Origin: Cetorhinus maximus | Lineage: Eukaryota | Assembly (NCBI RefSeq): GCF_964194155.1 | Contig: NC_135888.1 | Coordinates: 102,982,001 to 103,046,000, forward strand | Direction of reading: 5' to 3' | Length of the DNA stretch: 64,000 bases | In this document: positions 4,601-50,857 of the stretch, in pieces | Position numbering within the stretch: position 1 is the first letter of the stretch | How the letters are laid out: the number at the start of each line of letters is the position of its first letter | Notes under the pieces: model-generated | Databases searched by the model: none | Told to the model about the DNA's origin: nothing | The model's input: the letters and a program-made list of their open reading frames with translations, nothing else | Made by a program: the position numbers and the translations under genes

Positions 4601-4663
4601 CAAAATAAAAACAGAATTACCTGGAAAAACTCAGCAAGCCTGGCAGCATCGGCGGAGAAGAAA

Positions 4664-7521: not shown

Positions 7522-7558
7522 CTTTGTGTTTGATTGACTGCCACCCCTCTTCAAAAAA

Positions 7559-23024: not shown

Positions 23025-23570
23025 AGTAACATTGAAAGATTTATGGCTTGGAAAGAGGCCATTTGGCCCATCCTATCCATGCTGGCCAAAAAGAGCTCTC
23101 CAGCCTAATCCCACCTTGCAGCTCTTGGTCTGTAACCCTGTAGGTTACAGCACCTCAACTGTATATCCAAGTGTTTTTAAATGGGAATGAGGATTTCTGC
23201 CTCTAGCACCCTTTCAGGTATGAGTTCCAGACCCTCGGCACCTTCTGTGTGAAAACAATTCCTTCTCAACTAAATACAGAGATAAAAACAAAAAACTACT
23301 GCGGATGCTGGAAATCCAAAACAAAAACAGAATTACCTGGAAAAACTCAGCAGGTCTGGCAGCATCGGCGGAGGACTCAGCATGAGGACTCGAAACATCG
23401 ACTCTTTTCTTCTCCGCCGATGCTGCCAGACTTGCTGAGTTTTTCCAGGTAATTCTGTTTTTGTGTTCCTTCTCAACTACCTGCTAATCCTTCTACCAAG
23501 TATTTTAAATTCATTCTCCTGGTTATTGACTTCTCTGATAAGGGAAATAGGTCCTTCCTATTCACTGTAT
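23025..23570 (-). mobile_element. CR1 3' fragment
   Basis: GAGGCCATTTGGCCCATC..CCAATCCCA-like..GAGTTCCAGACCC pattern shared with the other CR1 tails in the window. Confidence 0.6.
23273..23465. mobile_element. Palindromic Penelope pLTR mini-element with 14-bp TSD
   Basis: TTCCTTCTCAACTA at 23259-23272 and 23466-23479. Arms 23321-23373 / 23412-23464 (1 mismatch). Near-identical to pLTR 7415-7530. Half-hammerhead CATGAGGACTCGAAACATCGAC in the loop. Confidence 0.9.
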
Positions 23571-26500
23571 CACCAGTGAGGTGTTCAGAATCATAGTGCT
23601 TTGTTACATCCTACACAACAATGCACAGCAAAGAAGACATTAGGCAGAGGATGATGAATACATTCATCAGGTATCTTCTGATGAGGAAAACATTGAAGAG
23701 GGGGAGGAGGATTATGAAGATGGGGCCTCGTAGGTTCAATTAATTATTCTGACTTGAACAAATAACAAATAAAAACCACCACCTGCAACCAAGCACTTAT
23801 CCCACCCCCCTTGCACAAAACAGTCCTTCAAACATGCAGACACCCATTGCATATCAGTCCAATGGATCCTGTCATGTATTGACATTCATCATGAAGCAAG
23901 TGGAAGGACAAGCTGACATTCCTGTTGCAATAATTGGTAAGAAGTGGACACGTTGCTAAGAATTACATTAAATATAGTGTCAAATAAAAAAGGAAACTTA
24001 ACAACATAAAATTTTGATGAGCACCCATGTGCATACCCTTGGTGAATTACAATTGATTTAACTGAGGCTCCTGACTGCTTCTTGTGATGTATGCTGTGCA
24101 GAGGTATGCTGCTCAGATCCAAGTCCTGATCACTAAGATGCTATTGGTAGACACCCTCTGGGTTTCAGGGCCCCTGAGTACCCTGCCAAAGTCTGGTCCA
24201 CCTGCCCCTGTGCAGACGCAAACCACTCATTTGGAGAGGAGCAGGATGTCAGGTATTGGCTGAGGTGGAAAGGAGCGATGGGTGAGAAGTAAAAGCGCTT
24301 TGAGTGGAGTTCCCATGATCCTTTTCACCATCATGCCTCTCCTGGGATAGCACCCACCATTCCAGATCAGCTTGCTGAAAATCAGTGATGTCTTGTAACG
24401 AGGGTGAATGAGTTATCTGTAATCCTGTTTAAGGTGGCAGACATGGTGGCATCTAAACTTTGCATGGCTCTGCAAATGACTTGCAAGGAATTATTTGAGA
24501 ACTGCTTGAAACCTCATGGAGGCAGCCACTTGCAATTATCAGCAACACCAATTCACCAATGTGTTGAGTTGGACTCAACCCCCCCTTCCCACCCCAACGT
24601 TTTTGCTATTGTGGAGAGTGTGCGTGGCACATCTGATAGGACCTTGAAAATTGCTAATGCACCTATAGCATTTTCCTTTTTAATGCTAGTCCCTGGGATT
24701 CAGCAACTGTGTTAAGCCGAGCAGAGTTTGGAGAGGATTGCTCTGACCCCTGCAACCCTGCATGAACCCTCCATAGCTATTCCTGCCACCAGTATCTGCT
24801 CAAACTCATTAGTGAGGTGTGGATCACCAGATGAAAACCAAATCAGCTCTCTGACTGGACCCAATTGAAGTGTGAACGTTTGTGCTGGTGCATGGCTCCA
24901 TGTCCTGTGCTGGTGCACTCTGAGAAGGAGGTCCTCTGAGGATTCAACCCCATGCATCTCTAGTGTTTCTTGCTTTAGGCATTAAGATCCTTCAAGACTA
25001 TGAATTAGTTGTGGTTAAGTAATATTCTCAGCAATCACCATACTCAATCCTCTCATAGTTCAAATTTTGATGAAATAAAGTCAACATGTATTTGTGATTC
25101 TGTCATCACTCCTACACTACATAAACTGCAGCGGTTCAAGAACGCAGCTCACCATCACCTTCTCAAGGGCTATTAGGGATGGGCAATAAATGCTGGCCCA
25201 GCCAGCGACACCACATCCCATGAACAAATTTTTAAAAATCAGCTAACTGTGAGTTCTCAGTCTCCATCTCTGATGGAGAAGAATGCAGAGGTGCCATTTA
25301 TTCCTAGGGCTTCCTGCTCTGCATCTGTAAGTTGCACAATTTGTGAAGGACCACCTCTAGTCCTTTCCTTTCTCTCTCCCTTGTGTTTTGCACTTCCTTC
25401 TGCTCAAATGGTGAAATATCAGACCAGCGAGTGATTGAAGGTTCACCCGATGGCTGCAGTGCCTACAGTGAGGATGACAGGCAGACAGAGGCACTGCACT
25501 ACAGGAGAGTTGGGGTTAGTGGCAGTTGTGGATAGATGCACTGGGAGGTGAGAAAGTGCATTGAATATGAAGGATGGGTGGCCGTGAGGAGTGATGTGAT
25601 GGAGCATGCTTGGCAAAACAAAAAGGACGTGGGGGTGGGGGGTTGGTTTACCCCACCCTGACACCCTTTCCCTGCTCAGAATGCAGGTGAATCTGCAAAT
25701 GGCCTCATTTTCCCTGACCCAGTTAGATCTGTGAACTGCTTCCTCCACTGCATCGAAGGCAGAAACGCAATGCTCCCATTGCTCACGTCCTCAGCACCTC
25801 CAACTTTACTGCCATGTAGCAGGTTTCTTTCTCCCAGTGCTGGGAATGTGCTGGGGAAAAGTATGTGCTTCCTGTTGCTGACTGCACCCAGGAGGATTTC
25901 AAGGGAAGTGTCAATGAACTTGGATGCTGCCCTCACTCTTTGTGAATCCATCATAAGCACCTCCTTACATAATGGACTTCAGATGCAGGGCACATCAACC
26001 ACTGAGCATTTTAGAGATTCAAAATCTGGAAAGAAAAATGTAATCGTGTAATTTAGCCAAAATTGAACTATCTGTCCCAATGATTTTAATTTTGTGGTTT
26101 GTGCACACAATTCCTCCCTCCCCCACTTCAAACCCACCTTTTTATTAACTGCCTGTAGTGTAGGAAGAGACATGGCGATGGACTGAAGGGTAATAAGCAA
26201 TATCAATGCAAAGCATTGCTCCAAGTTGAATTATGTATTGTACCATTTCCAAATAGAATTAGCATAAATTGATTTGTTGTGCAAACATAGCGGTTCTCAT
26301 ATCGGCAAAATATAAAGGCAAACGATACTTTAATTTAGGAAATATCCTTTTTTTAAACAGCAGTTGCTTGTGCTCCATCTGAGCCTGTAGGATGTGTAGA
26401 CTTTCAACAGCAACACTAATCAGAATATAACCCAATTGAGACCCTGGATTAGAGCGACAGGTGTTGGAACAGATAAGGACAGAAGCTGCACATAAGCCTG

Positions 26501-26737
26501 ATTGAAGTATTAAAACATTCCAAATTCCACTTTGCTTAGCCTCATATTATTTCTCCAAATGTCAACTATGTTGGTGAGGCACTCAACTTTTATCACTATT
26601 AGATAGGTGGTGAGAAATTCAGATCAATTGTGCCCATGTTTTAGGTGTTACAAGTGCCCTTAGAGCTTTAAAATCACAACAGTGGCAGCCCACTTTGGGG
26701 GTGAATTGCTATAATGCCAGATTTGTACAGATGTTGT

Positions 26738-28360
26738 TATAGAATCATGGAGCCATTAGAACACAAAACAAGGCCATTTGGCCCATTGAGTCTATGCCAG
26801 CTCTCTGTAGAGCAATCAAGTCAGCCCCATTCCCCAGTTCTATCCCCAAAGTCCTGCAAGTTTATCTCCTTAAAGTGGCCATCTAATTTCCTTTTGAAAT
26901 CATTGATTGTCTCTGCTTCTACCAAACCCCATGGGCTGCAAGTCCAGGTCATTACAACTTGCTGCATAAAAAAGCTCTCCCTCACATTCCACCTGCTTCT
27001 CTTTCCTTGAGCCTTAAACCTGCCTACCCTAGTCCTTTTACCATCAGCTACTGAGAAGTTTTTCCTTGTCTACCTTATCTAAAGCTCTATTAACTTTGTA
27101 CAGCTCTATCAAATCTCCTCTCCATCTCTTTTGCTCCAGGGATAACAACCTCAGCTTCTTCAACCTGACCTTGTGGCTAAAATCCCACATCCTTGGAAGC
27201 ATTCTGGTGAATCTCTTCTTTACTCTCTCAAGGGCTCTCATGTATTTCCTAAAGTATGACAGCCAGAACTGGGTGTAATGCTCTAGTTGCAGCCTAACTA
27301 GAACTTAATAAAGGTTCGGCATAAGTTCTCAACTTTTGTACTCAATACCTCTATTTATGAGGCCCACGATCCCATATGTTTTGCTAACTACTTTCTCAAT
27401 AAGTCCTGCCACATTCAAAGATCTATGCGCATAAACCCCCAGGTCCCTCTGATATGGCCCCCATGGAGACCAATAACACGAAAGATCCACACTTCTCAAA
27501 CCACCCCAATAGAGAAAGTTGATGGGCAAGATGTCACTTTTTAAAACCTTTACTGTAGCAATCAAATCAAAATCAACAAAATTAAACATGAGTTAACAGG
27601 AAAGTTGTATTTAATAGAAACCATAAATTATGCTTTAAATAGTTGCTACAACAAGGGTTAATATCACAGATTTCTCAGTTAGCACTCTTAGCACATATGT
27701 GGCACCATGTGCAGTCCCAAAGTCCTTCCCAGCTTTATCTTCCTACGGTAGAGTCCAACTACCCTTTGTCACCCAGGATTTGATCATCAGGTAGCCTCTG
27801 GCAACTGTTTTACTCCATCTCAGTTCCACAGATATGATCACTAACAAGGAACCTCCTTCACTCAGGTTATGACGGTCATGATGGCTGTCCCAGAGCTTTC
27901 CCAGAGTCACCTTAATCTGATCACTCAGTAACACATGGTACATGGTATCATTAGCTCTGGTAAAAAATACCCAGTTCCTTAGCGTGCCTCGACTGTTCAC
28001 TCAGTTTTTCAGAGCCTCTATCCTGTTCTGACCACAGGCTGATCTTCCAACCTGGTATATTCTTCCCAATTAGCTTCCATTTCCCTTGCAACCTACCACA
28101 GACTCCTTTCTCAGAAGTCACATGCAAGAAAACCAATTAACAAATCCCTCCAACAGAAACCTGGGCCTAGTTTTGGTTTCAGTTAGGGACAGTCTCAAAA
28201 ATATTGGAACCGTTTCAACACACATCTGAGTCTGCACACTCTTTAGAAATGTGCCATTTTGTCCATATTGCCTCTCCTTATCCCTTCTGCCAGAATTCAT
28301 CACCTCACACTTCTTTGTATTAAATTCCATTTGCCACTTGCCTGCCCATTCCGCTAACTT
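26738..28360 (-). mobile_element. CR1 LINE 3' part, interrupted by a ~780-bp LTR-like insert (27450-~28226)
   Basis: ALERVKKRFTRMLP..LLSLEQKRWRGDLIELYK, RDLGVYAHRSL and LAEWAGKWQMEFNTKKCEVM motifs; ATAGAATCAT tail. Confidence 0.75.
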
Positions 28361-30210
28361 GCCTATATTTTGTTGCAGTCGATTTGCAGTGAACATCTGC
28401 TGCATGCATGTAGAACAGACAGGTCATGATGTCAATCAGTACACAATGCTGATTTGGTGGCAGCCTGGTGCTATTTTGCCTTCTCATACAACAGAGCATG
28501 CATTCAGCAGTAGTAGGCAGCCCCAGCATCATTAAAGGGATCATCAATGACTTACAGATTAGTTACTGGTTAATTTGCTTTGTCTGCTGCATCAATTCTG
28601 CAAGTCTTTGATGCCTTCTATAGTTGTTTAAAGTTGTAAAGGCTACAGGGAGTGATGTGGCAGATGCTGAAGGGGTTATTACTGACTTCAGTACTTCTGC
28701 ACAAACCAGTTGCTGCCAATCATGAGTGCACGAGTAGGTATTCACCTTGGGAAAATGAGCAAAGGCCGTGCAATCAGGTCAGGCTGCTGGAAGAGAGAGG
28801 AATGGGAATGGGTAAAGGGCTCTCAGCCAGTGTCTCCTATAAATCTTTTCCCTTGTATGCAGCCTGTTCATTTAAGTGCATGGTACCTTTAAATGTACTT
28901 GTGTGGCTGTGAATGTGTTTATCTTAAAGGGGACAACTTGTGAGTTGCCTATGTGGTACCTTCTGGGTTGCTGCATGACTGCATGTGTGCATGTGCAGCC
29001 TACTGGGAACATTGCTCTCAGCAGGTCAAATTTGCCCATGGTCTTCAGGGAGCAATTGGCCTACCAGAACCTTAGTGAGGAACAATGTATAAGAAGTTTG
29101 CGCTTCAGTAAGAATGTCCTCACTGAAATCTGCCATTTGGTTCAGACACAACTGCAACTTCAATGCAGGACAAGAATCCATTGCCCCAGTGGCTTTGAGG
29201 TGACAATGGTGATGAACTATCATGTGTCAGGCTCCCTTAAGGCTGGAACTAGACATGTTGGCAATGTCTCCTATTTGCTGTCCACTGATGACAGAGGGAC
29301 ATCACTGGTATACTTTGTTCATTGAGATCTGACCACATTTCATTCTTTCTGACCAGAAGCAAGCAGATGAAGCTGGCTTTGCTAGAATTATAGGCTTCCC
29401 TATGCTGCAGGGTTCCATTGATTGTATACACTTCACTTTGTATGTTCTGCAAGTCAACTCTGCCCTATACTGGAATGAATGGGATTCTACATCCTCAGCA
29501 TCCAAATCTTATGTGACCATAGTCAATGAGTTGTGCAACGGCAGGAGACAGATGCCTTCATTTGGTGGCAGTCTGCTGTGCCAGTGTATTTGAGCCACCA
29601 TGGCAAATAGAGCCTTGTTACTGTAGGACAAAGCCTATTTGCTGACCACATGGATTATCACTCTGCTGCACAGCCCACGCTTGCGTGTACAACATGCACG
29701 CAATGAGAGGCATGCTGCCACATGAAATGTGATAGAGCAGACAATTGACATGCTGAAATAATGCTTCAGCTGCCTGGACTGCTCTGGAGGGCCTATGACC
29801 CTGCTAGGTCACCTCAAACAGCTTTGGGCCTAGAGAGCCTGGCATCACGCTGTACCATCTCAACATAGGCCGCAGCAGTTTTAACTTACTGACTGACAGG
29901 CAACAGCAAGGGCACTGGTAGAGTGGCTGGTTAAGAGGATGAATGTGGTCCTCCTGAGAGAGGACAACAGGTTGTGCCCTGTGGAGTATGAAATTGTGTG
30001 ATGGTGTGTCAACCTCGCCATTCTGTTCCTCAGCTGCCTGGCCAGGTTGCACCTCTTCAGTGTCTGAAAGAAGAAAAGCACAAGAGTAATGTTGTGGTAC
30101 GTGGAATAGGGCAGGGAAAATAAGCGGTGCATGTTTATACCATCTGCAGCTAGTAAATCAGAAGAGGGTGTGAGATCGGAGTGGCGGGAGGTTAGGATGT
30201 GAGAAGGAGG
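28360..30210 (+). mobile_element. Decayed Harbinger transposase
   Basis: YQNLSEEQCIRSLRFSK..EICHL; GFPMLQGSIDCIHF; DKAY; multiple frameshifts. Confidence 0.65.
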
Positions 30211-30215
30211 ATTGA

Positions 30216-31484
30216 GGGCGGAATCGTCCCAGATTGGCACTAAGTGCGGTAGTGGGCGGCTAAAACGGTTTTACTCACCGGCCGCAATGGCGGCTTTTCA
30301 CACCGTATCGTCCCAAACCCGCCGCATTCGCTATGCATTCCTGGGAAATACGCCGGTTCCATGGCGGGAAAGCTCTCATTTTCCTGCCATGCCATCACCA
30401 CCGCTTCATCAAGCCGGGTGCCATATTTAAAGTCCAACCGCACCACACATTTCAGTGCTTCCAGCCCATGGTTACTGTCGGGAAGGTGTCCACGAAAAGC
30501 AAAAAGAATGCAGCCCTTAGGTTTAGTGACACGTCACTGGAACACCTTTTGGATGCCATGGAAGCCCCCTGTGATGTCCTTTGTCCCCGCTCTGGCCGCA
30601 GGTTGGGCAACAACATTACCACTCTGGCTTGGGAGGCGGTGGCAGTGGTGATCAATGGCAATGCTGCACAGAAGAGGTTGGCCACCCAATGCAGAAAGAA
30701 GATGAATGATTCATCCGTGCTGCCAGGGTATGGCAACCATCTCATCACTCTAAACTCACACACTCAAGCCCATCACACATTCACTGGCATCTCACTCACT
30801 GCCAGCTCAAGAGACATCACCACCCGTTCTCACACACATACCCTCGCTTGTCCATCTGGCCTCATCTCCTCTGGAGGCTGCCTCCTCAGCCCTCACCATC
30901 TTGAGGCCACTTGCTCAGATCAACATGTGCCCCCACACACACACCCTGGGATACCCTCCGTCCCCAGTACAGCCCTCACCCTGCAGCCTTTTCCTTCTCC
31001 TGAGGCCACTTCTCCCCCTTTGCCAAGCATGACCTTACCCTGCAGCTGTTGAAAAGCCAGCTACATATGGCTGATCTGGTAGTTAGAGACCTCCCCCCCT
31101 AAAATTGATGTGGTGCTGTCTGTGAAACCTGGTGCCAATGACTGCGAGTGCTGACCGAAGCAAGGTAGGCAAACAAACCTTGGTGTCCTGAGTGAAGAGC
31201 AGCTCGCCAGGTGCACGTCGCTTATGTGCTGTTGCGAAACACGTTGGCGTGTTTTCCCGCCGACGTGGGCGGGGGACGATTCCGGCGGGTAGGCCTAATA
31301 ATGATATGCTGATGTATTACAATGACGTTCCCAAAATCCGATGATGGAGAATGCAGTCTAGCATCGGTGGGCTGAGTGGAAGATCGCAAACTGCTTTCAC
31401 GGCGTTGTGAAACGAATCACGCCAGATTGTCTGCTGAAACCACCGAATACGCCCAACGCTGGTGGGCACTGAAAATCCCGGCCC
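30216..31484 (+). mobile_element. Non-autonomous Harbinger derivative carrying a Myb/SANT exon (copy 1)
   Basis: TIR-like GGGCGGAAT..AAAATCCCGGCCC; RFSDTSLEHLLDAM..AWEAVA..KRLATQCRKKMND; colinear with 44865-46288. Confidence 0.75.
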
Positions 31485-34364
31485 GGGTCTGAGGAAACTG
31501 TCATCTTCCATGGTTTTAGCCTTACCACTGACCAAGGTCTCAGCAATGCCCATCCTAAGAATGGCCAGGACCATATTCTCCATGGGAGTTAGGACATGAA
31601 AGTTAGTCCTGCTGCCTCTGGTTGTGCATCACCTTGTCCTGCAGGAGTCAGAGGGTGTCGTGTGTGTCATGGTTGAATAGCTGCCAGTGTATGTAACCTG
31701 TGACCTGTGGACCTGAGGCTTGCAACAGTGCTAAATATGTGAAGGTGTGGTGTAGTGTATGAATGTCAGGTATGAGTCCTGATAGATAGAGATTGTTGGT
31801 AGGTGGGTGATGGAGTATGGTGAATTGAGCAGAGTAGAGAGTGCTTGGTAGATATAGCATTTGAAGATGCATTCATTGATCTTGGTCACTCATGCAAGGT
31901 CATTGGACTTTTTATGGCACTGTATCCAGGTGCTCAGGACTTAACTCCTGGCTTTGACCTCCATGGCTATCTGCCCCTAGTGCCTTCTGAGTGTGTTTCT
32001 GGAGGGTGTCCTGGCTCTCTAGGAATAGGGATCATCTCTCCTCCTGCCTACCTCCTCTACCAGGACTTCCAGTGCAGTGTTGGGAAAACTTGGAGCCTGC
32101 TCTCACCCTTGTAGTGTCATTCTTTAATGTTTTCTAGGTCAGATTCCCTTCCAGAATGATTGCATGCACCTGCTCCAGCCACAAGGTACTTCCCGTTTAT
32201 GAGGTGCAAGCTAGCTTTAAGTAGTGCAGGCTGGTTTTAAGTGGTGTTAGCTGCTCACAATATTGACCCTTTGTTGATACAACCAACCAATCAAAGAAGT
32301 GCAGACTGGACACTGAAATCATTGTAATGAACCCTGGTTAATTGTGCATCGCGATCCTGCACCTGTTTTCGGGTGCTGGTATTTAGCCGCCAGGAAGTCA
32401 ATTTTCTCGACAAACGTTTACAAACAGTAGGAAGGAGCAAACCTGTGTTCTCAGTTTTATTATTGGATTTTTTTTTCTAAGTGAATGAATTGGGTCCCTA
32501 TAAGAGTATACATGGGCTGAGTAATTATGAGCTATAGATTTAAAATGTATTTCCCTCAGTGGCATATGATGGATTAATGCATTCATGACATATAATCTTT
32601 TAAAGGAAATTACCTTGGAGAATTAGGCCTGGATGAGTTACAGCTACATGTTCTTCAAAGCAAATGCTAATTATAACAAATCAAAGTGTTTGAGTTTGTT
32701 CAGCGAATTTGCTATTCCCTACACTTCTTTTAAATTTATTTTAATTACGCAGTAGAAGCCATTCTTCTAACTGTTGCAGCTGAAAATCTTAGAGCACAGT
32801 ACACTTAAGGAAAAGGGAGCCTTAAAACCTCTAGCATCAAGAACCCGCTGGCCCAGGCAGATCCTCTCAACATGTCATGTAAAAAATCTCCTGCTTTGCG
32901 TAGGTAATTGTTTCAAAGTTAGTCTTTCATCCTTAAAAAACAGGACATTTTAGGACTTTATCCCCACTAGGGAGCTGCTCAGATAACCTTAGCTACAGGA
33001 GCACCAGCCTATAGATCCACAGGGAATTTTGGAATCAACATTCAGGCCAGTAAAAATCACTAATTGGGAACTTTAATTACTTGGAGGATTGCTGCTGTAC
33101 TTTTCGATTAATTTTGTTGGACTCAACACAGTCACCTTTAAATGGCCCTGACCCTGAAAAATTTGGCAGAGTCAGGTATCCTCCATTACAGTGCGTGCTA
33201 ATGCTGCTGTGCTCTGTTCTTGTACACTCCATAAACATTAAAGAGAATTCACCTCAACCTGTAGCTAAACTGGTACAATGTTATTCTCTTTAAACCTCAA
33301 ATTTATGCTGTAATGATAAGTCTAATATCTCTATTTCCCTCTAATAGGATTTAAGGTCTCTATGGACATGTGTTCTTAAAGTTATATATTTCAAAGAAAA
33401 TGTAAAAATGGTTCATCTTGATGTTCATATCAGCAGGCAGCTAGTCTTTCTAGCAGGACAGAAGGATTCAAGATATTGTTGTCCAACATAATGTCTAATT
33501 AGCCTGTGGGCCTATTAGATTCAGTAGCATCTAAAGCTGCGTTCATGGGTTCTGCTCTTTGACTTAAGGGGCAGTTGATTTTCTAAAACAGCTGTTATGT
33601 GCTGTCGTCAGCTTAAAATCTTTAAGATAAACCCTCGAGTTAGCAGCATACTTTACATTTTGGACAGCTAACTGGCCCCCTGTTAAAGCCCGGCATCTAA
33701 CGATACAAATGCGGAATCTCAGCTTGCATTTTATTGCTGGAATTATAGTGCTGCCATCCTTTTATGCAAACTGTTTCCATGAGTGATTTCAGGAGCTTAA
33801 CTAATAATACCAAAAGGCTGTTCAGAAAGACTCACTGGAATCAAAGTTGAAAATTCACAACCTTTTCTCATTTGTGATGCGATGGGGTTGGGGTCTAGTG
33901 GTGATGCAGTCACATCCTGGAGAAAATTATAGATTTTTCTAGTTTTTGAAACTGTTATTTTATTAGAAATATTTGTAGATCTCTCATTACATTATTGGTG
34001 GATAGCCTAGGCTTAAGCCAAGGGACAGAACAGTCAGATTGGAAAGGGAGCAATCATTAGTGTATCCACTTTAGCTTGTCTAATGTTTCATCATTTTTAT
34101 TTAACATAGATTGCTATTTTGTCTTCCTTCCACAGAAACATTGGAAACTCTACAGTAATCCTTTAGTACCAATTTATTCACCAATAATCCCTATACTTCC
34201 AAAAACATTGCCATTTCTCCAGAACTGTTGGCTTTTCAACTGTTTGAGAATGATGCATTTCACTAGCCATCATCCAATTTATTTTTCATTGGCAGATGAT
34301 TCCTCCTTATTGATGATTCTTATCCCAGACATGTTTCTCATTTACGGCTCAAGCTTACAAGCAT

Positions 34365-35260
34365 TGAAACATAGAATCATGCAGCACAGGAGGCCATTCA
34401 GCCCAATGTGCTTATGTTAGCTCTTTGATAGAGCTAATTAATCCCATCTCCATGCTCTTTTCCTGTAGCTCTGCAGCTTTTTCATCCTCAAATATTTTTC
34501 TAATTCTCTTTCGAAAGTTACAACTGAATCTGCTTCCACAAACAGTGCATTCCAGGTCACAACTCGCTGTGTAATAAAATGTTTCCTCATATCGCCACTG
34601 TTCTTGCAAATCACCTTAAATTTGACTTAAAACAAAAGCAGAACACATTGGATGCTGGAAATCTGAAATAAAAACAGAAAATGCTGGAAATACTCAGCAG
34701 ATCTGGCAGCATCTGTGGAGAGAAAAACAGAGATAACATTTCAGATCAAGGACCTTTCGTCAGAGCACCTTAAATTTGTGAACTTTACTTGCTGACCTTT
34801 CTGGCGTTAAAAATAGTTTCTCCTTATTGCCTCTATAAAGCCCATTTATAATTTTGAACACCTCTATCAAATCACCTCAATCTTTTCTGCTCTAAGGAGA
34901 ACAACCCCACTTTCTCCAGTCTCTCCACATCCCTGGTATCATTCTATTAAATCTCTTCTGCATTCTGTTCAAGTCCTTGACAGCCTTCCTAAAGTATGGT
35001 GCCAGAATTGAACTCAATACTCCAGCTAAGGCCTAACGAGTGTTGTTTAAAGGTTCAGCATAACCTCTTGGCTTTGTATTCTATTTTAAATAAATAAAGC
35101 CAAGGATCTCATCTTTTTAATAACAGTCTCAACTTGTCCTGTCACCGTCTAAGGTTCGTGTGCATACACCCACAACCCATCCACTCCCAGCTGCCTTTGC
35201 TCCTGCATGCTCTTTAAAATTGTACCATTTAATTCATATTCCTTCTCCTCATTCTCTTTG
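34365..35260 (-). mobile_element. CR1 3' fragment
   Basis: CATAGAATCAT tail, GGAGGCCATTCAGCCC and antisense RT C-terminus. Confidence 0.7.
34625..34765 (-). mobile_element. Solo Penelope pLTR with hammerhead core, 13-bp TSD
   Basis: CACCTTAAATTTG at 34612-34624 and 34766-34778. Minus strand begins CT-CTGACGA-AAGGTC-CTT-GATCT-GAAA-TGTT. Confidence 0.85.
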
Positions 35261-36032
35261 TGTTTCAATGCAGTGATGAACAATCAGATTAGATAATAAA
35301 TAGGACAGAATTTTCACCCCCCTTTTGAGGGCAAGATCAGAGGTGGGCAGTTGCATAATTTCATACTGACAGCTGGTGTGCCAGTTTGCTGCCACCATCC
35401 TGTCCCGGGCCATTTTCCTGGGTGGGATTGGGGCGGAAGGCTACCCTCCCGTAAGCTGCTGGTAGCCAATTAGGGTAGGTTTATGACCAATTCAGGCCTA
35501 TTATTGGAGGTCACTGGAATTTTCCAGTCAGCCTGTGGTCTCCACATGGCTTTGTGATTAGGCCTGTTGCCTGTGCGCGGCCTCCCAGTAGCAGACGGTG
35601 GACCAGCGCGCCAGGCAGATTTTGAGGCCCTCCCTGACTACCTGGCCACAGTTGCAGCCAGAGTCCACGCTGTGAAATGATTCCATCTCCACACTGTGTA
35701 GGCTGCAGCTCCTTCCCTGCTGGAGGGCCTCATGTTGGCCTTCCAGCTTTGAGTGCCTATCTGCTGTTTGTGAGCATGCCCTCTTGACTCTAATTGGCCA
35801 ATTCAGGGAAATTCACTGCAGGCTGATAGTTCCTGATACAGTGCAGGTCAGGACACTGATTTGGCACCCCGCTCCCCAACTGCCTCTCTCCCCAACCTAA
35901 AAGCATGCCGCAGACATTCCTGCAGCTCTTGGCTGTATTTGTATGGAAATGTGGGAAGATTCAGGACTGTGCATATATAGAAGCCAGGAGAATGTTGTTA
36001 CTCTGCATGTATGAAAGTTAGGTGTTACAGGG

Positions 36033-38290: not shown

Positions 38291-39967
38291 ATCTGGTTTC
38301 CTGGCTGATATTCCTCCCTCAATCTACACCACCAAGGCTGTATTCTTGGCTGAAAACCCAGACATTCATTAGCCTGTTGAAAGACCAGAACCCAAGAGAA
38401 AACATTGATGGACAGCTCTGGCTCTCTGACCTCTGCTGTCAATTTCACAATGTTTATGTACAAAGGTTAAGAGATTAAAAGTGCTTCCAGTTTCAGCTAC
38501 TGAAAATTTAAAAGGTCTGGATGATTGACACTTTTACTACCCTGTAGTGAAAGGTGTTTTTTTCACATAGTGGAAAGTTATGAATGAATGACTGTTTTTA
38601 AAGCTTTTTTTTTTACACATCCTATTGTCACAATAGAACACCTTGGTTCTATGTAGCATATAGTGGGTCAATGGGCATGGAAGAGCCAATGCTTGGCATA
38701 TGGGCCATGAGGGGTCATGAGGGTGGGTGGAGGGGCATACCCTGGCACAGGTGCCATTAGGGGCCAGAGGGTGTTTCATGGGGCATACCAAGAAATGGGG
38801 GCAGGAGAGGCCATAGGGGGTGGGCGGGGGCTCATACCTTGGCATGGGGTGCATGAGGAGTCGGGGGTTGTTTGGTAGGACATATATTGGCATGAGGGGC
38901 TATGGAGGGTGGCGGGGAGGCATGAGGTGGCATGGATGGTGCATGGGCAGTGTGTGGGGGATGTGAGGGTTCAGGACTGGCAGGCCTTTCTGTTTTTATT
39001 TTAACTGAGACAAAGCCCCACAGCACCGAAGCAGGGCTTTTAAACAGTCCGCTTTGGCACCTGGCAGCCTCTGTGGCTGCCTTCGAACATTTTCCCAGGT
39101 CGGCTGGGCCCAACTCTAGCTCGCACCCACTCCCTCAGCCATAATGAAAATCATGTCCTTGCGGGCACTTTCTCACAAAAGGCCTACATGTGCAATTGCA
39201 TCAATGGATTGTAGTTACTGCGAACATTTTCCATCACCTCAGAAATCAAGGGTGTTGAAGATTTCTTGCTCTATTTTGTATGAATGGACAGAGAACTGAG
39301 ATTTTTGTTTTAATTCAGTGTTTGCACTGGTTTGAAAATGTTTTTTTGTCTGAACAAGATTAAAGACCAGTGAATCAACTCTATTGTCATTTGGGATCGA
39401 CGGAGTTGTACTTTTGCTAAGCATAGGGAAGTGTGGGAAGTGTGATGATTTGACAAACCTGAATTAGATAAGAAGTGTAAGTGTTGTAATTAATGTTGTC
39501 TTTGTGACCCTTTGTCTTGTAGAGACAGTGCCAGCTTACTTTGTACAAATCATCAAATTCTGGGTAGCCAACCTTTGATTGACTGAGAACCATTTGAACC
39601 TCAGATTCTTTTTTTAGTTTACATTTACTTTTGCTGTGAAATGAAAAGTAGCAACAGGAAAAAAATACACATTTAATGAATAACAAACAAATATACCAGC
39701 ATCTGTATGCAGTGGTATAGTGAAGGCATGGATTTCTCTGGCTATTAACACATTAGGCATTAACTCACTCAGCCGTCATTGTGCCAGATTTAACCTGCCT
39801 ACACTTTCTCCTAGTAAAACCAGAGCGTATATATTATACCTATCAAAATGACTAAGTGTTATGGCTATTATTTGATGAAAAAGGAAAATAACTATTCTCA
39901 CGATGAATGGGCGTCCATGGGCTTGTTATGTATCTTCTACAGAATATGTATGTTTTAACTGCAGCAG

Positions 39968-40690
39968 AGGAATTTAGGAAAAGGAGTAGGCCACTCCTCC
40001 CTCAAGTCTGTTCCACTATTCAATGAGATTATGGCTGATCTGTATTTTACCTCCATCCACCAGCATTGGCTCCATGTCCTTTTATGCTGTAGGCTGGCAA
40101 AAGTCTATCAATCTCAGATTCAAAATTGTTGAAATTGCACCTTTTTTGTAAGAGAAAATTTCTCATTTCTATCACTCTTTGCGAGAAGTTTCCTAACTTC
40201 CCTCCTGAACGGCCTGGCTCAGATTTTAAGGTTATGTCCTCTTATCCCCACGAGAGGAAACTTTTTCTCTCATCTACCCTATCAATTCCTTTCAAAGTCT
40301 AAAAACTTCAATCAAATCACCCCAAATTCTTCTCTATTCCAAGGAATACAAACCTAGTTTATGTAATCTCTCTGCATATTCTAGCCCTTGGAGCCTTAGT
40401 AACATTCTGATTAGTCTGCACTGCATTCGTTCCAAGGACAATATATCCCTTCTAAGATGCTGAGGCTAAGCTGTATACAGTACTCCAAACCAGGGCTTGT
40501 ATCACTGTCCCAAAACTCCCTCCTTTCTACATTCCTGCTTTGTAGCTATAAAGACTAACATTCCATCAGTCTTTTTGATTTTTTTTGTACCTGACTACTG
40601 CATTTTAATGATCTGTGGACCTCTAAATCTCTTTGGATTTCCACTGGTCCTAGCTATTCATTATTTAAATAATACCAGTCGAATACATAG
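39968..40690 (-). mobile_element. CR1 3' fragment
   Basis: AGGAGTAGGCCA..TTCAATGAGATTATGGCTGATCT tail similar to 58720-58780. Confidence 0.65.
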
Positions 40691-43600
40691 CCCGATTCAG
40701 ATCTGGATATCTAGCGAGCTGTTGTGGCCAGCATGAGCCAAGGAGTTGTTTTTTACTGCCCATAATACTTTTACAATTGCACATTTGTAAGGATTTTAGA
40801 GCAGATTGGATACTATGTCACCTGTGTGATTTATATAAAATTCATGAGAACCAACAGCATCACTTTTTTTTCATTTGCATCAACAAATTAAATTAACTTT
40901 TTACTTAAAATGAAAAGTTAGCTGAAACCATTCCAGATGTAGAGGTACACAAACAGGTTAACATGGGAAGGTCAGTATTACATGCTTTCAAATCACATTC
41001 AAGGGTGAACCATTGCTGCGTCACTTTTGAAACTTGCATAACAATATAGATGTTTAAAAATGTAGAATGCTTTTCTGATGATATAACTGAAATGCAAGGA
41101 CCAATCAAAATGTTTATATACAGCATCAATCTACTAATATACTTGATTTTCACCATTTGTGCAATCGTCAGCATTTAAGAGCTGTGCAGATTCCGAATGA
41201 AAGTGAAGAATGTATCAAGTCATTAAAACCGTTAATGCAAGACTCAGTAGAAACAGCAATCATTGATAAGCTGACAGCAGTCTAAAGAACTGTTGGTAAA
41301 ATACTGTAAAACTCTGGTGATTACTGTGATGGGAAAAGTGGCAGGAGGAACCCATGGAGATTTCTGTACTGCAGCCCACAGAATCCCAAATGAATGGTAA
41401 TTTTGCAATAAATAGAGTCAGTCAATAGAAACACGTCAATGTAGTACAACAGCTGGTATGGAAATTTGTAACAATCCAAAGCTTCAAGATCTGACATAAG
41501 CTATAAAGAAATAAAAGATGGTCTAAACTGCTCTACAAGGTCTTTCTCATGAGTATATTAAAAGGCCAGATAGATGTGTTACAGGCTAAGTTCATATATC
41601 ACACACTCCCTGTAGTGAAATGTACTCAAAGGAAATGCGGATCAGAGACAGGGTTACAACAACCTATGCTGCCTTTAAGTGCAGCTACCACTAGAAGCAT
41701 GGATTTATTAAATTTACCATCGTACTTTATGAAAGAGATGCTCCGGGGAAGATCAGAAAAATTGTATTTGTGAGCCTTATTCCAATAATCTATTTGGTTT
41801 TTTTTTTAAGGGGAAAGATTACAAGTGAAGAGTGCCTCTTATTAAAACTGCCTCCTCCCATCCCCCAATAGAATTATCATACTCTTCATCATCTTCATCT
41901 CAGGCTAAACCTTTGCTGGCATATATTGATAATACTATTGCAAAAATAGCATTCACTCATTCTGTTTTTACTGTATATTTGTGCTGAAATGTTTCCGACA
42001 TAGGGACATAAGGATGACAACATAATCCCTCCTGAATTGTATTCTCTGATCTAGAACATGACATGAGTTTAGGAGAGCCATAGCATTAACCAGACATCAT
42101 CTGAGGTAGGCTGTGTGCACTATTCTTGGCTCGGCTTGTGACTCTGGGTAGGCGGGTCCCATTTATGTTGATTTAAATTGGAACACTTTCTATGGGAATA
42201 ATTTAATGGGCAAAAGCAATCATGATTTCACCCACTTGAAGATGACTGGACCCATTGAGAGATGAATCACTATATCTGCAGTGACATTCTAAGGTCAAAT
42301 TTAATCAAATTGCAGGTTCAATCCAAGCTGATCGCCAGCAGATTCAGAGCTGAAGTATCTGGCCTCTGTGCACTGATCACCTCATTCTCTCCTGCTGATT
42401 TTCCCATTGTCTGAAATTAACCATCATCCACGTGACACTAAGGACTCATATAAATTCAACGTCAAACATTCCAAAAGTCCAGTTGCAACTAGCAGAACAT
42501 AGTCAAAAATTGTGGAGCCCCACTAAGCTTGACAATAATAAATGATACTACATGCCATGGATTCTATTACTGCAAATTAAAACCATTGTCGGCATAAATA
42601 AGGGGTTGCTCATTTTTGGGGTGATGTGTGCATTCTTTAGATTTTTAGATCTCAAAATTGTGGTTTCATATAGAGGGACCAACCCAGAACAACTGACCAT
42701 TTTCTCTAAAAATGCAGTAAAATACAATAGACTGCTAATTTGCAAAAGGGTAGAGCACAGCAAAGCTTGCGTTGGAATTTCAGTAGAGCAGCATAAAAGG
42801 AATTTGAGCGAGCAGTCCTTCGTGTGCTGATTTATTGATTTCATTCTTGTCATCTTAGCTGGTGAGGAACAGAAGCCAGCAGTTCTCTAAAGGGATAGAA
42901 CAACTTACAAAGTTACAATCACTGTATAGAGCACTCTCATATGCTTGTTGCTAGATGGGTAGATAAAGCTGCAACTTGCAAATTGGAAAAACAGACCTGG
43001 GAAGTGGAGTCTGTTCTTTTTACTTTAAATCCGTTATAGACTTTAACCTGTATACTTATAGAAGTGGCTCCTAGCAACTGGGGAAATAATAGCTGAATGA
43101 GGTACTTAAGTATGGTTGCTTTGATGAGAAATAGTATCAATAAAGAATAGTTTTAATTTGTAAAATCATTCATAGCAGCACAAATCCTATAATGATAGCT
43201 TTCAGACTTATGTCAACAGACAGAATAAAATATCAAGCACTGATTATTCTTTTGAACTCCAGACTTTTTTTTTAAAGCCCATGAGAGTTAAATCCATTGA
43301 CAGCTTTGATAGTTGCAATTAGTTTTGAGGGCATTGACAGCTTTGTCAGTTCTTTGACAGCTTGACAGTTCCAAGGAGTTTATGCACTTTTTATACACAA
43401 TCATATTTACTTTTAATAATCCCAAAGGGTGCTTTAACTCCCCCAAAGGGTGCCTTACCTCTCCCAAGGGTGTCCCAGGACCAGATTTTCTCAGAAGTTT
43501 GTGCCCTTCCACGGGCTAAATCATATAGCTACAAGCTGAAGGGACCTGCTGCTTTGATAGAAAGAGATGGCTAGTATGCTGCAAAATTTTCAAAGAAACT

Positions 43601-44864
43601 TCCTCTGTGCACGGTTGCAGTCTTACCCCACTGGCACAGGTTCCTTACACAGGTCAGGCTCAATGCCCCTCTGGCAGATGTTGGGACCCAGCAGGTGGTC
43701 CCTACATTATTCTTGTTTTTCAGATGGTATGAAACACAATGGAGGCCATAGTTCCCTTATTTAAAATTTGTCAAAATGCACCTATCTATGTGTTGGTGGG
43801 CATAGACTCCCATGTGACAACGGACACACAGAGAGCAGGTTGAGATACAACCTGGTTTGTTTTCCACCCTCTGTGAAGGCACTCAAGTGAACTTCTGTTG
43901 ATGGATTCCTCTCAATGCCGGAACCAGGAATGGCTCTGCCTGATTTCTAGATACAGACTTAGTTTTTGTTTGGTTAGGGGAGACCAAACAAGATAATATT
44001 TATAATATTTAAATATGGGTTAACTGTAATCTTTCACTGTAGAATGGAATTTGGAATTATTTATTTCATCTTTGATCGCAATCTCTGCAAATTTAATGGG
44101 TAAACAAACTGTTCTGATGAAGTTTCATTTACTCTGAGTGACTTGAAGATAGTCAGTTTTTAGGTTTTTATTTGAAAATATTTATTTACACTATTTACCA
44201 GGACCTCATGGGAAGGATGTTGCTCTCTGGACACAGACTGTTTTGTGTCTTGCTCTCTTGGAGCCTTTTGGCCATCTGACCCTGACGTCATGCTTACATC
44301 ATCACACCATCATTGTCTAATTAACATAACCATTAACCCTTTACTTTACATCTCCACCCAAGTTTAATCCCAAAACTGTTAAATTATTTTGTTAAACTAT
44401 TTTTAAAAAACTATTTACAGTCCCACCATCTCGCCCCAAAGTCATAACCTCACAGGTTGGGACTATCCGGTGCTTTTACAACTCCCCCTCATCTCAACTT
44501 GAGTATTCTCGATCGAGGGTGTTGGGCTGCACTCAGTTCCTGGACTCGAGCATCATTTCTGGGAATGTTGCAGTAGAGTTAATCTTGTCACTCTCATTAT
44601 GGTAATACTGGAATGACTGTTTCCTTGTGGCTTCTAAGGGTATCAGAGCCTTTCTGTTTCTTTGGAGAACTCCAAGTGGTGTTTTGACAAGGTATGATCA
44701 TGGCTACTGAATTTTTTCTATGACTGTATCTTTCGCCTGACAGTCTTTTACCAACACCTTTTGCCCAGTTCTAACATGGGTAGTGTTCTCACTCTATGCC
44801 AGTGATTAAATCAGCTAGACTGTTTCTCTTTGTATGTTTGCTCGTGACACCTTACTCAGTCATG

Positions 44865-46288
44865 GAGTGGAATTCCCAGATTTGCACTAAGTGCAGTAGT
44901 GGATGGGAAAAATAACGTTTTACCCGCTGGCTGCAATGGTGGCTTCTCATGCCTTATCATCCCAAACTCCCCGCATTAATTATGTGTTCCCAGGAACACA
45001 CCATTTCCATGGCAGGCAGGCTCTCATTTGCCCGCCACACCATCACCTCACTGCTTCATCACGCTGGGCGCCATTTTTAAAGTGAACCCATGCGCACACC
45101 TCTCAGTGCTAGAGTCATAGAGGTCTTCAGCACAGAAAAAAGGCCCTTCAGCCCATCGAGTGTGCGCCAGTCAAACAAGTACCTACCTATTCTAATCCCG
45201 TTTCCCAGCACTAGGCCCATAGTGCTCCCAGCCCAGAACTGCTGCACAGAAGACAGGATGGCCCCGAAAGGCAAAAAGACTGCAGCCCCTAGGTTTAGTG
45301 ATGCATCCCTCGAGCGCCTTTTGGATGCCATGGAGACCCGCCCTGATGACCCCTACTCCCGCTCTGGCCGCAGGAGGGGCAGCAACATTACCACTCCAGC
45401 TTGGTAGGCAATAGCAGTGGTGATCAGCAACAATGCCCCACTGAAGAGGTTGGCCATCCAGTGCAGATAGAGGATGAATGATCTCATCCATGCTGCCAGG
45501 GTAAGGCAACCATTTCATCACTCTAAACTCACACACTCACAAGGCCATCACACATTCACTGGCATCTCACTCACTGCCAGCTCAGGGGACATCACCACTC
45601 ATTCTTTCACACACCCTCACATGTCCATCTGGCATCATCTCTTCTGGAGGCTGCCTCCTCAGCCCTCACCATCTTGACGCCACTTGCACAGATCAACTTG
45701 TGCCCCCACACACACCCTGGAATACCCCCACTTCCCCAGTACAGCCTCACCCTGCAGTCTCTTCCCTTGCCTGAGGCCACTTCTTCCGCTTCCCCAAGCA
45801 AGCCCCAGCCCTGCAGCCATATAAAGCCACCCCTGCCTTATGGCTAGTCTGGTAGGTAGAGACCTGCCCGTGAACCCCCCTAAAGGTGTTGTGGTGCTGC
45901 CTGTGAAGCCAGCACTGATGACTGGGAGTGCTGCCCGAAGCAAGGTAGTCAAACAAACCTCAAAGTCCCGAGTGAAGTGCAGTTCGCCAGGTGCATGTCG
46001 CTTATGTGCTGTTGCGAAACACGTCGGGGTGCAATCACGATGTGGGTGGACGATCCAGCATGGGGGGGTGGATGAGTCCAGTGGGTTAGTCTTATAATGA
46101 TATGCAGACGTATTACAATGAGGTTCCCGACATCCAATGGCGGGAGACACGACTGCCATCAACGAGCTGAGTGGATGATCACAAACCAGTTTCACGACAT
46201 TATGAAACCAATTTTTGGCCTTCTTGTCATATTGTCCACACACGCTGCCGAACACGCCTGACGCCAGCAGACATGGAAAATTCCACCC
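44865..46288 (+). mobile_element. Non-autonomous Harbinger derivative with Myb/SANT exon (copy 2), nested in the Gypsy integrase
   Basis: TIRs GAGTGGAATT / AATTCCACCC; 3-bp TSD ATG (44862-64 / 46289-91); MAPKGKKTAAPRFSDASLERLLDAM..MNDLIHAAR followed by a GTAAG donor. Confidence 0.8.
45111..45220 (-). mobile_element. Short CR1 tail inserted into the Harbinger derivative
   Basis: AGTGCT TSD (45105-10 / 45221-26). The empty site is present in copy 1 at ~30454. Confidence 0.75.
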
Positions 46289-49200
46289 ATGGTCTTGTAT
46301 GGTGATGGTGGGTCTCAATTGATGTTGCAATGAAGGAAGTTGTGTCTTTAGCCTTCTCCCCATCAGTAGTTCAGCTGGCAAAAAGCCACTCCTTAATGGC
46401 GTTGCCCTGAAATTGAGTAAGGCTCGCTCTAGATCATTGTTCATTTTCATGGTTTTACCCCTCTGTCTGCTTCTCCATTAGCCTGCAGATGGTGTGGAAA
46501 ACTGGTCACATGGTGAAATTCATTCACTGCGAATTGTTGGAAGTGTGCATTCATAAGCTGTGGACTCTTGTCCGAGATAACCTCATCTGGAATGCCATAG
46601 ATCGAGTAAATACGTTTCAAATCTTTTACCACAGCTTCTGTGGTTGTGGTATGGAGTCTGCTGATTTCCGGCCAGTGAGGGTAATAGTTGATGACTAAAG
46701 GGTAGATTTTTTTCTCTGAAGTCTAACAGGTCCATTGCTAGACCCTGCCAAGGCCTGGATGGAACTGTTGATGGTAGCAACATCTGTTGGCTCTTGTCTG
46801 TTGATGGCACAGGTATGGCACGTCAAAATAAATTATTCAATAGATTTAGAAATTCCCGGCCACCATACTAATTGTTGTGCCTATGCTTTGCATTTGTTAA
46901 TGCCCAAATGACCACTGTGGAGTTTTTGGAGAATGTCTGCACATCACTCTCAGGATTACTAGCCTGTCATTGAATACTAGAAGGTCACCAACAATTGTCA
47001 GATGTTTTTGTTGCTCGTGATATTGTCTTAACACCTGACAGCTTGGGACATATTCAGACCAACCTTCTTGGCAGTATGTTCTGACCTGACTGCATTCTGC
47101 ATCCTTCAGCTGGGCTTTCCTAATCTCCCTGAGTTTGTTTGCAGTTGTTGCAGAACTTGTTATTGATGAAGAATATACTTTCACTTCAGAGATGGGTGTC
47201 AAGTGATGTTCTGTAGCCTGGTCGACTGTAACTCTCGATAATGTGTCGGCAGTTTTCTGACTTTTCCCTGGCATGTACTTTGTTGTAGAGTCATAGCGCA
47301 TGAGTCTTGGCCAGAAACGTTGTATCCTTGGCAACATCTTAGCAATTTCCTTGGAGTTCAGTAGAGTGAGGTTTATGGTCTGTCTCAATCCTGAATTGTA
47401 AGCCCATTGAGTAATCTGAAATGTTTTCGCAAGCCCATGTCGCCATTAGTGCTTCCCTTTCAATTGTTGCATAACATTTTTCAGTCTCTGTCAATGATTT
47501 AGAGGCATAGCAAACCAATATTTTCCTGCCATCATCCTGGATCTGTAGAATAATGACTACGAGCCCCATTGCTAATGCATCAGCTGCCACTATTGTCTGC
47601 AGTTTGGGGTCATAATGTGCAAGCACGTCTGAAGAGATGATTGGCTTTTCAATCTTGTCAACTCCCCAATACCACTGCTGACTCTTTCTCAGCAGGTCTT
47701 GTAAAGGTTCGTTGATGGCAGACAGATTTGGGATGAAATTTCCCCACCTGATTGACCATGCCTAAAAATCTTTATATGTCAGCAACACTCTTGGTATTTT
47801 GGGGGCCTACTGTTGTCCCTTTTTAGCTGTATAATATAGCCTAAATATTTGATGTTGGATTTCCCAACCTCTCACTTTTCACTCAGAGTGAGGCCTGTTT
47901 GTTCAAGCACTTTCAAAAGCTCCCAGATACTATGATCGTGCTCTTTTTTGGTAGCACTATGGATGAGCAGATTTTCCATGTGGCAAATAATGTCTTTTCT
48001 GCCTCTGAGCATGTTGGACATAGTGCTTTGAAAGATTTCTGGTGCAAAGTATATGCCAAAGGGAAGTTGATTGAAGCAAAAGTGACCGAGGGGTGATAAA
48101 TGTTGTCAGCAATCTTCATTCTTAGTTAAGGGGGATCTGCCAGAAACCACTGTTGGAATCCAGCTTCGTAAAAAGAACACTTTTGGACAATCTCGCCGGA
48201 CTGTCATCAACAGAAGACATTGGGCGTATCTCTCCTTGAATAGCTTTATTTAGCTGTGTCAGATCAACACAGAACCTGATTTCACCATTAGGTTTATGGA
48301 CTGTCACTAGACCTGAGCACCATTTTGTAGGCACTGTAACAGGAGAGATAACTCATTGACGCAGCATCCTGTCACCGTGCTCTTTGGCTTTCTCGATCAG
48401 TAGATAATGTACCCTCCCAGGGGTAAATAAGCAGACGAGTTTGGCATCCAGGAGTAGAGCAATGTGATATTCAATTTTGAGCTTTCCCAATCCCCGGAAT
48501 AACCTAGGAAATTCATTCCTAGTACAGCCTTGCTGTCATTCTGTGTTATCTCTTTGACTCTTTGTAGAAGACTGAGTTACGAACATGCTGTTCTGCTGAG
48601 CAGAGAAAGTTTTTGATTCCCTAGGATAGAGAGTTTCATTAATTTCTTTATCGTTTTGCCTAAGGATTGTAGTGATCCAGCCCTTCACTTTGAGGTCTGT
48701 GCCTCCTGGCCTCTGCAGCTTTATTTTTGATGGCTGGATCTCAACATTATTAAGCCAGTCCAATTTATCTGACAAGACTGTGAACCCAGCCCAGTGTGTA
48801 GTTTAAATTCTGTCCTGTATCCTTTGACTTCCAGCTCTACAGATCAGAACTACTTGTTGGGGTCTTTTATTTACCCCAGGAAATCTTTATTGTGAATGTC
48901 TTGTTCTTGCTTTCTTCCTTTCAATTGTACTTTAGACCTGCAGAATTGTTTAAAATGTCCAGTTTTTGTCCACAGGTAAAGCATTCGGCCCCTACTGCTG
49001 GGCAGTATTTGTGACGATTGCTGCCTTTTGGCGCTGTAACTAGAACATTTTAACATAGGTGGAAGAGTTTTTCCCACCCCATGGTGGTTTTTGCAGGCTT
49101 TTTCAGTGCCTTTTGGTGGGTGGAGCTCCCAACTTTGGGCCTACATACTACGCCTATCCCCCCTGAACCTCGATGTCTCCCTGAAGTGTAACCCAATTCT

Positions 49201-50118
49201 GTTGTCACAGCTCTACTTGCTTTGCAAACTCTTCAGCCTTCTCTAATGTTAAATCCTCTTTGGTTTGCAAAATGTCTGACAGCACATCCTCAAGCCCGTC
49301 GAATACGATGTGGTCACGAATTAACTCATGCTTTAAAGCACTGACTACAACTGCTGGCCAGTCAATACAGATCATTAACAAATGAATCAGTGGATTCACC
49401 AGCCTTTCGCTCCTTTCATTGAATCTCACCCGTTCAATGATCAGATTCTTCTTGGGGCTGAAGTAATTATTGAAGGCCCTCAGAATCTCCTTGTAGGATT
49501 CCAATGTCTTCTTGACTCCTTGTCTTGCCAGGTCATCATCAGCTAAGCCCCCAGCTGCATTTTGAAGCATACTGACCTTGTGTTTTTGTGCCTTTTCTTG
49601 TAAGCCCGATGCTGTTCGGTACCTTTCAAACTGTCTCCTCCAGAGCTCTGACCATTGTCTTTGTTGTGGACCCTCATTGCTTTGGAAGGGCTGTGGAAGA
49701 GATTGTGGCTGTTCATTGGCTGTTGACATCCTGAGTGGTTCACTGTCCCCTACCAAGATAGGTTCTATTTTGTCCTTCTTTGTTGCGAAGTTGAGCTGTT
49801 CCAAGGTCTTCACCAGTGGGTTACCAATCAGTGGTCTTAGTTTCTTAAACCGCCACCTCCAGTGCTGCCACCATGTTTTGATGAGGTTTTACTTACTCTG
49901 TGACTGACTTGGAGATAGTCAGTTTATAGTTTTTCTTGAAACTACTTATTTACACAATTTACTAAGACCTCATGGTAAGTACATTGTTCTCTGGGCTTAA
50001 ACTGTTCTGTGTCTTGCTCTCTTGGAGCCCCTTAATCACCTGACTCTGATGTTATGCTTACATCATTACCTAATTAACATAACCATTAACCCTTTACACA
50101 AAGAACATGTTATTCTGA

Positions 50119-50302
50119 TACAAAAAAAATACTGCAGATGCTGGAAATCTGAAATAAAAACAGAAAATGCTGGAAACGTTCAACAGGTCGGGTAGCATCC
50201 ACAATTTTGATGTAGGGTCATCGACTTAAAACATTAACTCTGTTTCTCTCCACAGATGCTGCCTTACCTTCTGAGTATTTCCAGCATTTTCTGTTTTTAT
50301 TT
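50119..50302. mobile_element. Palindromic Penelope pLTR mini-element with 12-bp TSD (older subfamily)
   Basis: ATGTTATTCTGA at 50107-50118 and 50303-50314; arms ~50152-50199 / 50255-50302; decayed hammerhead TTGATGTAGGGTCATCGACTTAAAACATT between them. Confidence 0.85.
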
Positions 50303-50857
50303 ATGTTATTCTGAAATGGGTTATAGAATGCACACAATTTAAAATTTCTCAGGCGCAGTGTAATGAAAGTGTCTCTGATGCCTTTTGGTACATTGTCTAG
50401 AGAAAGGAAAGAATGAACAAAGGAGAAAAAGCCAAGAATGAATCGATAGAGATAAAGTAATACAATATAGTATTGGACCATATTATTGGCTTAATTTTCT
50501 ATAAGTATTTAAATAAGTAAACACCAAGAACAGTTTAGATGCAATCTGTACAGAAAAGTCTGATCAGTATTTGGAAACATTTCTGTAATTAGAAGCTCCC
50601 TCTTTACAGGCGTAGTATCTTCATGGAAACTGACAATTCATTGCTTGTTGACACAAAACATAATATGGCGATGTAAATCATGTTGAGACACATCATCATA
50701 TCACTTGTATGTGATATTACTGCAATGAAAGTGCCTCACCCTTCTAGCTGTTGTCCCTTTCAGGGTGAAGGGGCTTGTGGAAAAAAAACACTCAGAAAGA
50801 CAATATCCCTTTAAATCAGTGGCATTCTGTCATAAAGTTTTGCAGTAATCAAACTAA

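Follow-up and report, generated by a model that had tools for sequence, protein, structure and literature searches.

In the genome of Cetorhinus maximus, insertions of an endonuclease-positive (EN+) Penelope-like element (PLE) that consist of two inverted arms within a target site duplication (TSD) carry, with near-obligate regularity, one tailed and one untailed end, and such copies are probably made by twin priming, with strand displacement, on a single sense RNA. The stretch analyzed (the window: 64,000 nt of contig NC_135888.1, positions 102,982,001 to 103,046,000) contains three of them, one large insertion and two miniatures (minis), in each of which two 3′ ends of the element's pseudo-long terminal repeat (pLTR) face outward; the arm that includes the tail is called long and the other short. 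How PLE integration is completed and how inverted one-tailed copies originate is the open question addressed here, the later integration steps having been left unvalidated in work on an anole element (Frangieh, 2024; PMC11167929). Tens of thousands of copies with clean TSDs are present in this genome, and the answer has to agree with what they show: ends that are not alike, priming at both junctions, a symmetric cut of 14 nt and arms that are coupled.

A single tailed end per insertion

All three window insertions show the outward-facing pLTR 3′ ends and the exact TSDs that an earlier, sequence-only reading of the window had placed there (TSD coordinates refer to the plus strand). The large insertion (4601-10811) lies between TSDs of 15 bp (4586-4600 and 10812-10826). 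Its short, untailed arm (4601-7318, minus strand) is 5′-truncated and differs from 8048-10765 at 13 of 2718 nt, while the long arm on the plus strand begins, at its inner end, with an upstream partial-tandem pLTR plus tail (7319-7521, period 3291 nt) and ends with the 3′ pLTR (10610-10811), in which the first T-tract is the short site and the last T-tract the long site; the 46-nt tail (10766-10811, plus strand) is found only on this end of the insertion. Mini1 (23273-23465, 14-bp TSD at 23259-23272 and 23466-23479) is made of a long arm (23273-23373, minus strand), a centre of 7 nt outside both arms (23374-23380) and a short arm (23381-23465, plus strand). Mini2 (50119-50302, 12-bp TSD at 50107-50118 and 50303-50314) belongs to an older subfamily and has a long arm at 50119-50199 (minus strand) and a short arm at 50206-50302 (plus strand), both with approximate inner borders. 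Beyond a TTCTG anchor the long and short ends extend 57 and 11 nt in the large insertion, 55 and 8 nt in mini1, and 42 and 9 nt in mini2, leaving gaps of 46, 47 and 33 nt. The motif CAGCATC(C/T)GCAG, proposed as a mark of the long end, is indeed located there, and the proposal that the short end stops roughly 35-50 nt earlier agrees with the first two gaps, that of mini2 being slightly below this range. Our TSD caller recognized all 36 true end pairs that it was given and none of 150 mixed ones. At 34650-34730 (minus strand) the window also contains a lone older-subfamily arm, its tail partly decayed, for which a partner arm was not seen.

The same rule of bimodal, anti-correlated ends extends beyond the window, as judged from two samples of contig C1. 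One, chosen blind to the tail, comprised 100 listed matches among the 46,312 of a tail-free core; its 39 pair calls, after removal of three (two with matches inside element sequence, one bridging two minis), gave 36 TSD-flanked two-armed copies, every one of them long plus short. The other covered a young subfamily (93 places examined of 100 listed, among 3,020 matches) and yielded 66 chains, 34 of them two-armed: 32 flanked by a TSD, one further long-plus-short chain excluded by the filter (C1:120958700), and one short plus short; the remaining 32 had a single orientation. A single tailed end was found in all 32 TSD-flanked young copies, of which 30 lie outside the first sample, so that the combined count from the tail-blind samples on C1 is 66 of 66. 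Of 30 loci examined among 2,247 matches of the older subfamily, nine had close outward pairs, all long plus short and three with a clear TSD; one long-plus-long pair, 1.5 kb apart, had no TSD. Three random 200-kb blocks contained 61 arms, scored as 32 long and 29 short (those of the C3 block with matrices), which formed 10 outward pairs; one tailed end was present in four of five TSD-flanked two-armed copies. At offsets 164240/164328 of the C3 block (L047), two long ends are joined by their tails, which looks like the insertion of one copy at the end of another. About 28 further minis retrieved with mini1 as query were left out of the pairing count, because the query is itself long plus short; also removed were the duplicate rows L009, L025 and L029, the unclassified L030 and a junction interrupted by an unresolved gap of 572 nt.

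One-armed copies occur with either end type (17 short and 15 long in the young set), and in the older set the exact-match arms that have no partner divide 26:10. One-armed copies have shorter TSDs, the 17 for which one was called giving a median of 11 instead of 14. One copy has no more than a 13-nt stub of the long end, with a TSD of 15 bp.

Priming sites and target site

End positions were mapped in a set of 34 two-armed copies of the young subfamily, to which the large one of the window belongs. Long ends fall at 10802-10814 (31 of 34 within 10809-10814) and short ends at 10758-10768 in 27 of 34, each T-tract being preceded by a TTTC(C/T)AG box (10739-45 and 10773-79). The placement of the short end at the first T-tract, suggested previously, therefore describes most copies, but in seven the end is located farther upstream, 4-118 nt before the earliest T-tract end. 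Microhomology between the target and the template continuation averages 1.8 nt at long ends (n=34) and 1.7 nt at short ends (n=32). Random flanks give 0.37 and swapped TSDs 0.5-0.7, and none of 3000 swaps reached the observed values. Microhomology at both ends is of the primer type, at about five times the random value. The exact positions of the long and short ends are uncorrelated (rho 0.16, p 0.40, n=29).

TSDs measure 13-16 bp at 61 of 67 sites, with a mode of 14, and both flanks present the same half-site, approximately R-n-C-n-R-R-C / 14 nt / G-Y-Y-n-G-n-Y. A half-site matrix built from long-side flanks scores short-side flanks at +1.25, against -2.1 +/- 0.3 (0 of 2000). The pairing, the bimodal ends and the microhomology at both ends support the earlier idea of two priming sites, each used once per insertion. 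Its further specification of one site per target strand holds for the single event only: the half-sites look alike, and for the anole element the start site was not seen to differ between top and bottom strands (Frangieh, 2024; PMC11167929).

Arms, centres and the origin of minis

The two arms of an insertion are coupled. Over 30,396 positions they disagree at 71, and they have 54 bases in common that are absent from all other sampled arms (26 copies). Of 34 copies, 14 have inner ends at most 20 nt apart, where permutation gives a mean of 1.2 and no more than 7; outside a zone of recurrent ends, the inner ends coincide in 10 of 30 (mean expected 0.9). Near-perfect palindromic centres are seen in 14 of 34. 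In 11 of these 34 copies it is the short arm that extends farther inward, by more than 50 nt, and in 8 it is the long arm, with differences of as much as 2.6 kb; as a longer short arm lacks the tail and its long partner lacks the inner part, neither was copied from the other. Overlaps of at least 2 nt at the centre occur in 11 of 23 copies against 3.6 expected, the excess spanning 2-4 nt. Among inner ends in a 200-nt zone, nine of 25 fall within 9 nt at an initiator (Inr)-like TCAGTT (1.1 expected), about 30 nt past a TATA-like element, and a looser group clusters near what we take, from consensus, to be a hammerhead cut site. Arms in the C1:19870000 region and at 1643605 end at the Inr-like site and run straight into another part of the element, which suggests template jumps from the 5′ end of the RNA. 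A directional bias of the central loop, also considered, was not reproducible between the young and older sets.

Short, palindromic, non-coding, TSD-flanked and abundant, the minis resemble miniature inverted-repeat transposable elements (MITEs), and the sequence-only reading had called them MITE-like. A MITE-like or SINE-like family spreading as a unit, with an asymmetry inherited from its founder, would account for this appearance, yet we regard it as highly improbable. The 53 minis examined span 84-396 nt between anchors; only six of 1378 mini pairs match in length and have a similar centre, and none of these six is identical. Their ends differ by 33-170 nt instead of forming terminal inverted repeats matched to both ends, and two-armed copies with the same ends continue without a break in size up to 7.6 kb. 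The differing centres rule out amplification as a unit: minis formed anew, as had been proposed, and their hairpin shape is a by-product of the insertion of a retroelement. One mini is present twice on C24 (L008 and L009), 10.8 Mb apart in opposite orientation and with common flanks, as a segmental duplication. Internally deleted units of about 350-600 nt, some in tandem, in which a leader is fused to the 3′ region and pLTR (C1:3022313-3023874, 4872697-4873360 and 1344992-1345368), are candidate non-autonomous, retrozyme-like derivatives.

Identity of the element

The insertions belong to an EN+ PLE family. The large copy has an intact 917-aa open reading frame (ORF; 7559-10312, plus strand) with reverse transcriptase (RT), a CX4CxxC linker and, at the C terminus, a GIY-YIG endonuclease. 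RVT_1 (E=1e-6) and GIY-YIG (E=4e-4) both score marginally below Pfam cut-offs, the motifs DKG, YIDD and YIGET are present, and 739 relatives were found at E<=1e-30, the top two by identity being shark proteins (65-69%). The CX4CxxC at C783-C791 fits the CX2-5CxxC between RT and endonuclease that the accessible part of Craig 2021 (PMC8557442) names as a feature of Neptune/Nematis-type PLEs. The layout is also that of EN+ PLEs: direct pLTRs of a partial tandem (99% identical), an adjoining inverted 5′-truncated copy, the whole unit within a TSD, and a tail of the expected order (~30-40 bp, at one end), here 33-47 nt in the window; among the 34 young copies, 29 have a tail of 42-57 nt. The 25-nt tail-free core has its 46,312 exact matches across a 4-Gb genome.

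A TATA-like TTTATAT (7339) and the Inr-like TCAGTT (A at 7371), together at 7339-7374 on the plus strand and repeated at 10630-10665, likely mark the transcription start, their assignment following the Inr and TATA consensus. By eye, 7370-7410 (plus strand; also 10661-10701) contains a candidate minimal hammerhead-like motif when set beside the description in the available portion of PMC4209133. An Rfam search gave no hammerhead match and nothing else of relevance, and the pLTR folds no better than shuffled sequences (z 0.97).

A model of integration and its alternatives

Twin priming would proceed as follows. It begins with nicks at a pair of similar half-sites some 14 nt from each other, as the motif and TSD lengths indicate, presumably made by a protein dimer, and each target 3′ end would then pair through the observed ~2 nt with a U-tract; priming at the tail borders was demonstrated in vitro for the anole element only (PMC11167929). 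Both primers would use one RNA, on which the downstream-primed RT may displace the upstream cDNA. Each site is present once per RNA, and long-plus-long and short-plus-short products would therefore be excluded. The two cDNA ends would be joined through microhomology, creating a new centre every time, in keeping with the unique centres and their overlaps. Minis would result if the two RTs halted early or came to the 5′ end of the RNA at the pLTR promoter and ran off it, where inner ends cluster around the putative start site, and failure of one primer would leave a one-armed copy of either type.

Several observations weigh against this reading. The random blocks gave long plus short in only 8 of 10 pairs (p=0.055), the remaining two being a short-plus-short pair without TSD and a TSD-flanked one whose longer arm ends inside the tail. 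Like-ended outward pairs, all without TSD, number three short plus short and one long plus long, the latter with arms of different subfamilies. Neither the one-armed young copies nor the unpaired older arms show a fixed priming order. In the older set, only 19 of 30 cases have the partner as the nearest arm, and the slightly longer short arm of near-symmetric young copies (10 vs 1) is not repeated there (9 vs 8). Across 26 long arms covariation was absent (term -0.27), leaving RNA structure at the sites without support. Gene conversion between arms, or two transcripts from one source locus, could also explain the private bases; strand displacement by a PLE RT is an assumption, and use of both start sites on one target molecule is not reported for the anole element (PMC11167929). 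The short-plus-short copy at C1:14985807-14993817 has an internal N gap and inverted flanks (1159/1495 positions match) and is possibly an assembly artefact or a later rearrangement.

The same pairing would follow from a protein dimer carrying two RNAs, usually from the same source locus, with its subunits holding different registers, one per site. Such a dimer is predicted for the anole protein (PMC11167929), and it would account for symmetric half-sites, two-end microhomology and private bases without any strand displacement; we nevertheless consider it unlikely, since an additional rule must impose the unlike registers and independent RNAs leave it unexplained that inner ends coincide at scattered positions. 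The published reading starts from a fold-back hairpin: according to the accessible parts of these papers, Arkhipova 2013 (PMC3846280) proposed self-priming on an antisense template and Craig 2021 (PMC8557442) resolution by the endonuclease, whose offset cuts would leave the tail on one side. Palindromic centres and near-identical arms are what it predicts, but either arm may be the longer one, and no fixed arm can therefore serve as fold-back template. Moreover, ends scatter over U-tracts with primer-type microhomology on both sides, the geometry demands a sense template for the extension of a target 3′ end into either arm, and in vitro the RT starts on sense RNA at the borders of the tail (PMC11167929). 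As a general route, fold-back was rejected for 11 of 34 copies, in which neither arm contains the other, and it remains for symmetric ones; overall it appears quite improbable.

Other features of the window

A fragment of a related PLE ORF (56640-56904, minus strand; 84% identity to the large copy) adjoins an 18-nt tandem repeat (56906-57164). ORFs in 28951-31052 and 62578-63937 resemble Harbinger-type nuclease and Myb-like genes, and fragments at 45659-49729 (minus strand) resemble gag/pol of a decayed LTR retrotransposon.

Comparison with known systems and implications

The asymmetry had been thought undescribed, but a one-ended tail is already reported in the available sections of Arkhipova 2013 (PMC3846280) and Craig 2021 (PMC8557442), and its borders were mapped to two RT start sites by Frangieh 2024 (PMC11167929), with both target strands cut and extended. 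The one-tailed layout is thus known, and the added value lies in constraints that favour one testable mechanism. Descriptions of canonical EN+ PLE units, as far as those sections go, include a single RT plus GIY-YIG ORF, partial-tandem pLTRs, an adjoining inverted 5′-truncated copy, a TSD and a 30-40 bp tail, "optional" or "often" at one end, without a count or a miniature class; in the shark the single tail is near-obligate in TSD-flanked copies, measures 33-57 nt and accompanies a TSD mode of 14, compared with 8-10 bp in rotifer examples. In the anole Poseidon element PAc, the tail likewise lies between two internal RT starts, a short way downstream of the hammerhead, cutting and extension take place on both strands and a dimer is predicted; its start sites are AC-rich, within the ORF and associated with an ATT cut preference, whereas the shark sites are U-rich, upstream of the ATG and linked to a G-Y-Y-n-G half-site. 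The PAc paper is silent on the pairing of the two sites per insertion (PMC11167929). Near-strict exclusion of like ends, microhomology at two ends, a symmetric half-site at a 14-nt stagger, and arms with common private bases that often stop together are apparently unpublished. Neither twin priming nor a pairing count nor this target motif was found for PLEs in the literature covered, which was mainly open-access, with early Penelope papers outside it.

In the twin-priming model of the retrotransposon L1, one RNA is primed again, farther upstream, by the other target strand, producing an inversion with a new centre within the TSD. There, the two cDNAs cover adjacent RNA segments and the product is a minority outcome, whereas the shark arms overlap fully on the same RNA segment, giving an inverted duplication, and about half of the young copies (34/66) are two-armed. 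L1 twin priming is named in the accessible part of 10.1101/2024.12.14.628481.

PLE-derived hairpins deserve annotation as PLE stumps instead of MITEs, and the twin-priming model is directly testable in the published in vitro assay. More tentatively, twin priming with strand displacement may be the normal way in which Penelope integrates, with a symmetric pair of endonucleases acting 14 nt apart, a duplicated UUUCCAG box setting the primer sites and one RNA copied twice. If true, one mechanism would cover the tail, the repeats in head-to-head arrangement and also the hairpin minis, as products of priming close to the promoter, and the model of antisense self-priming would give way to it.

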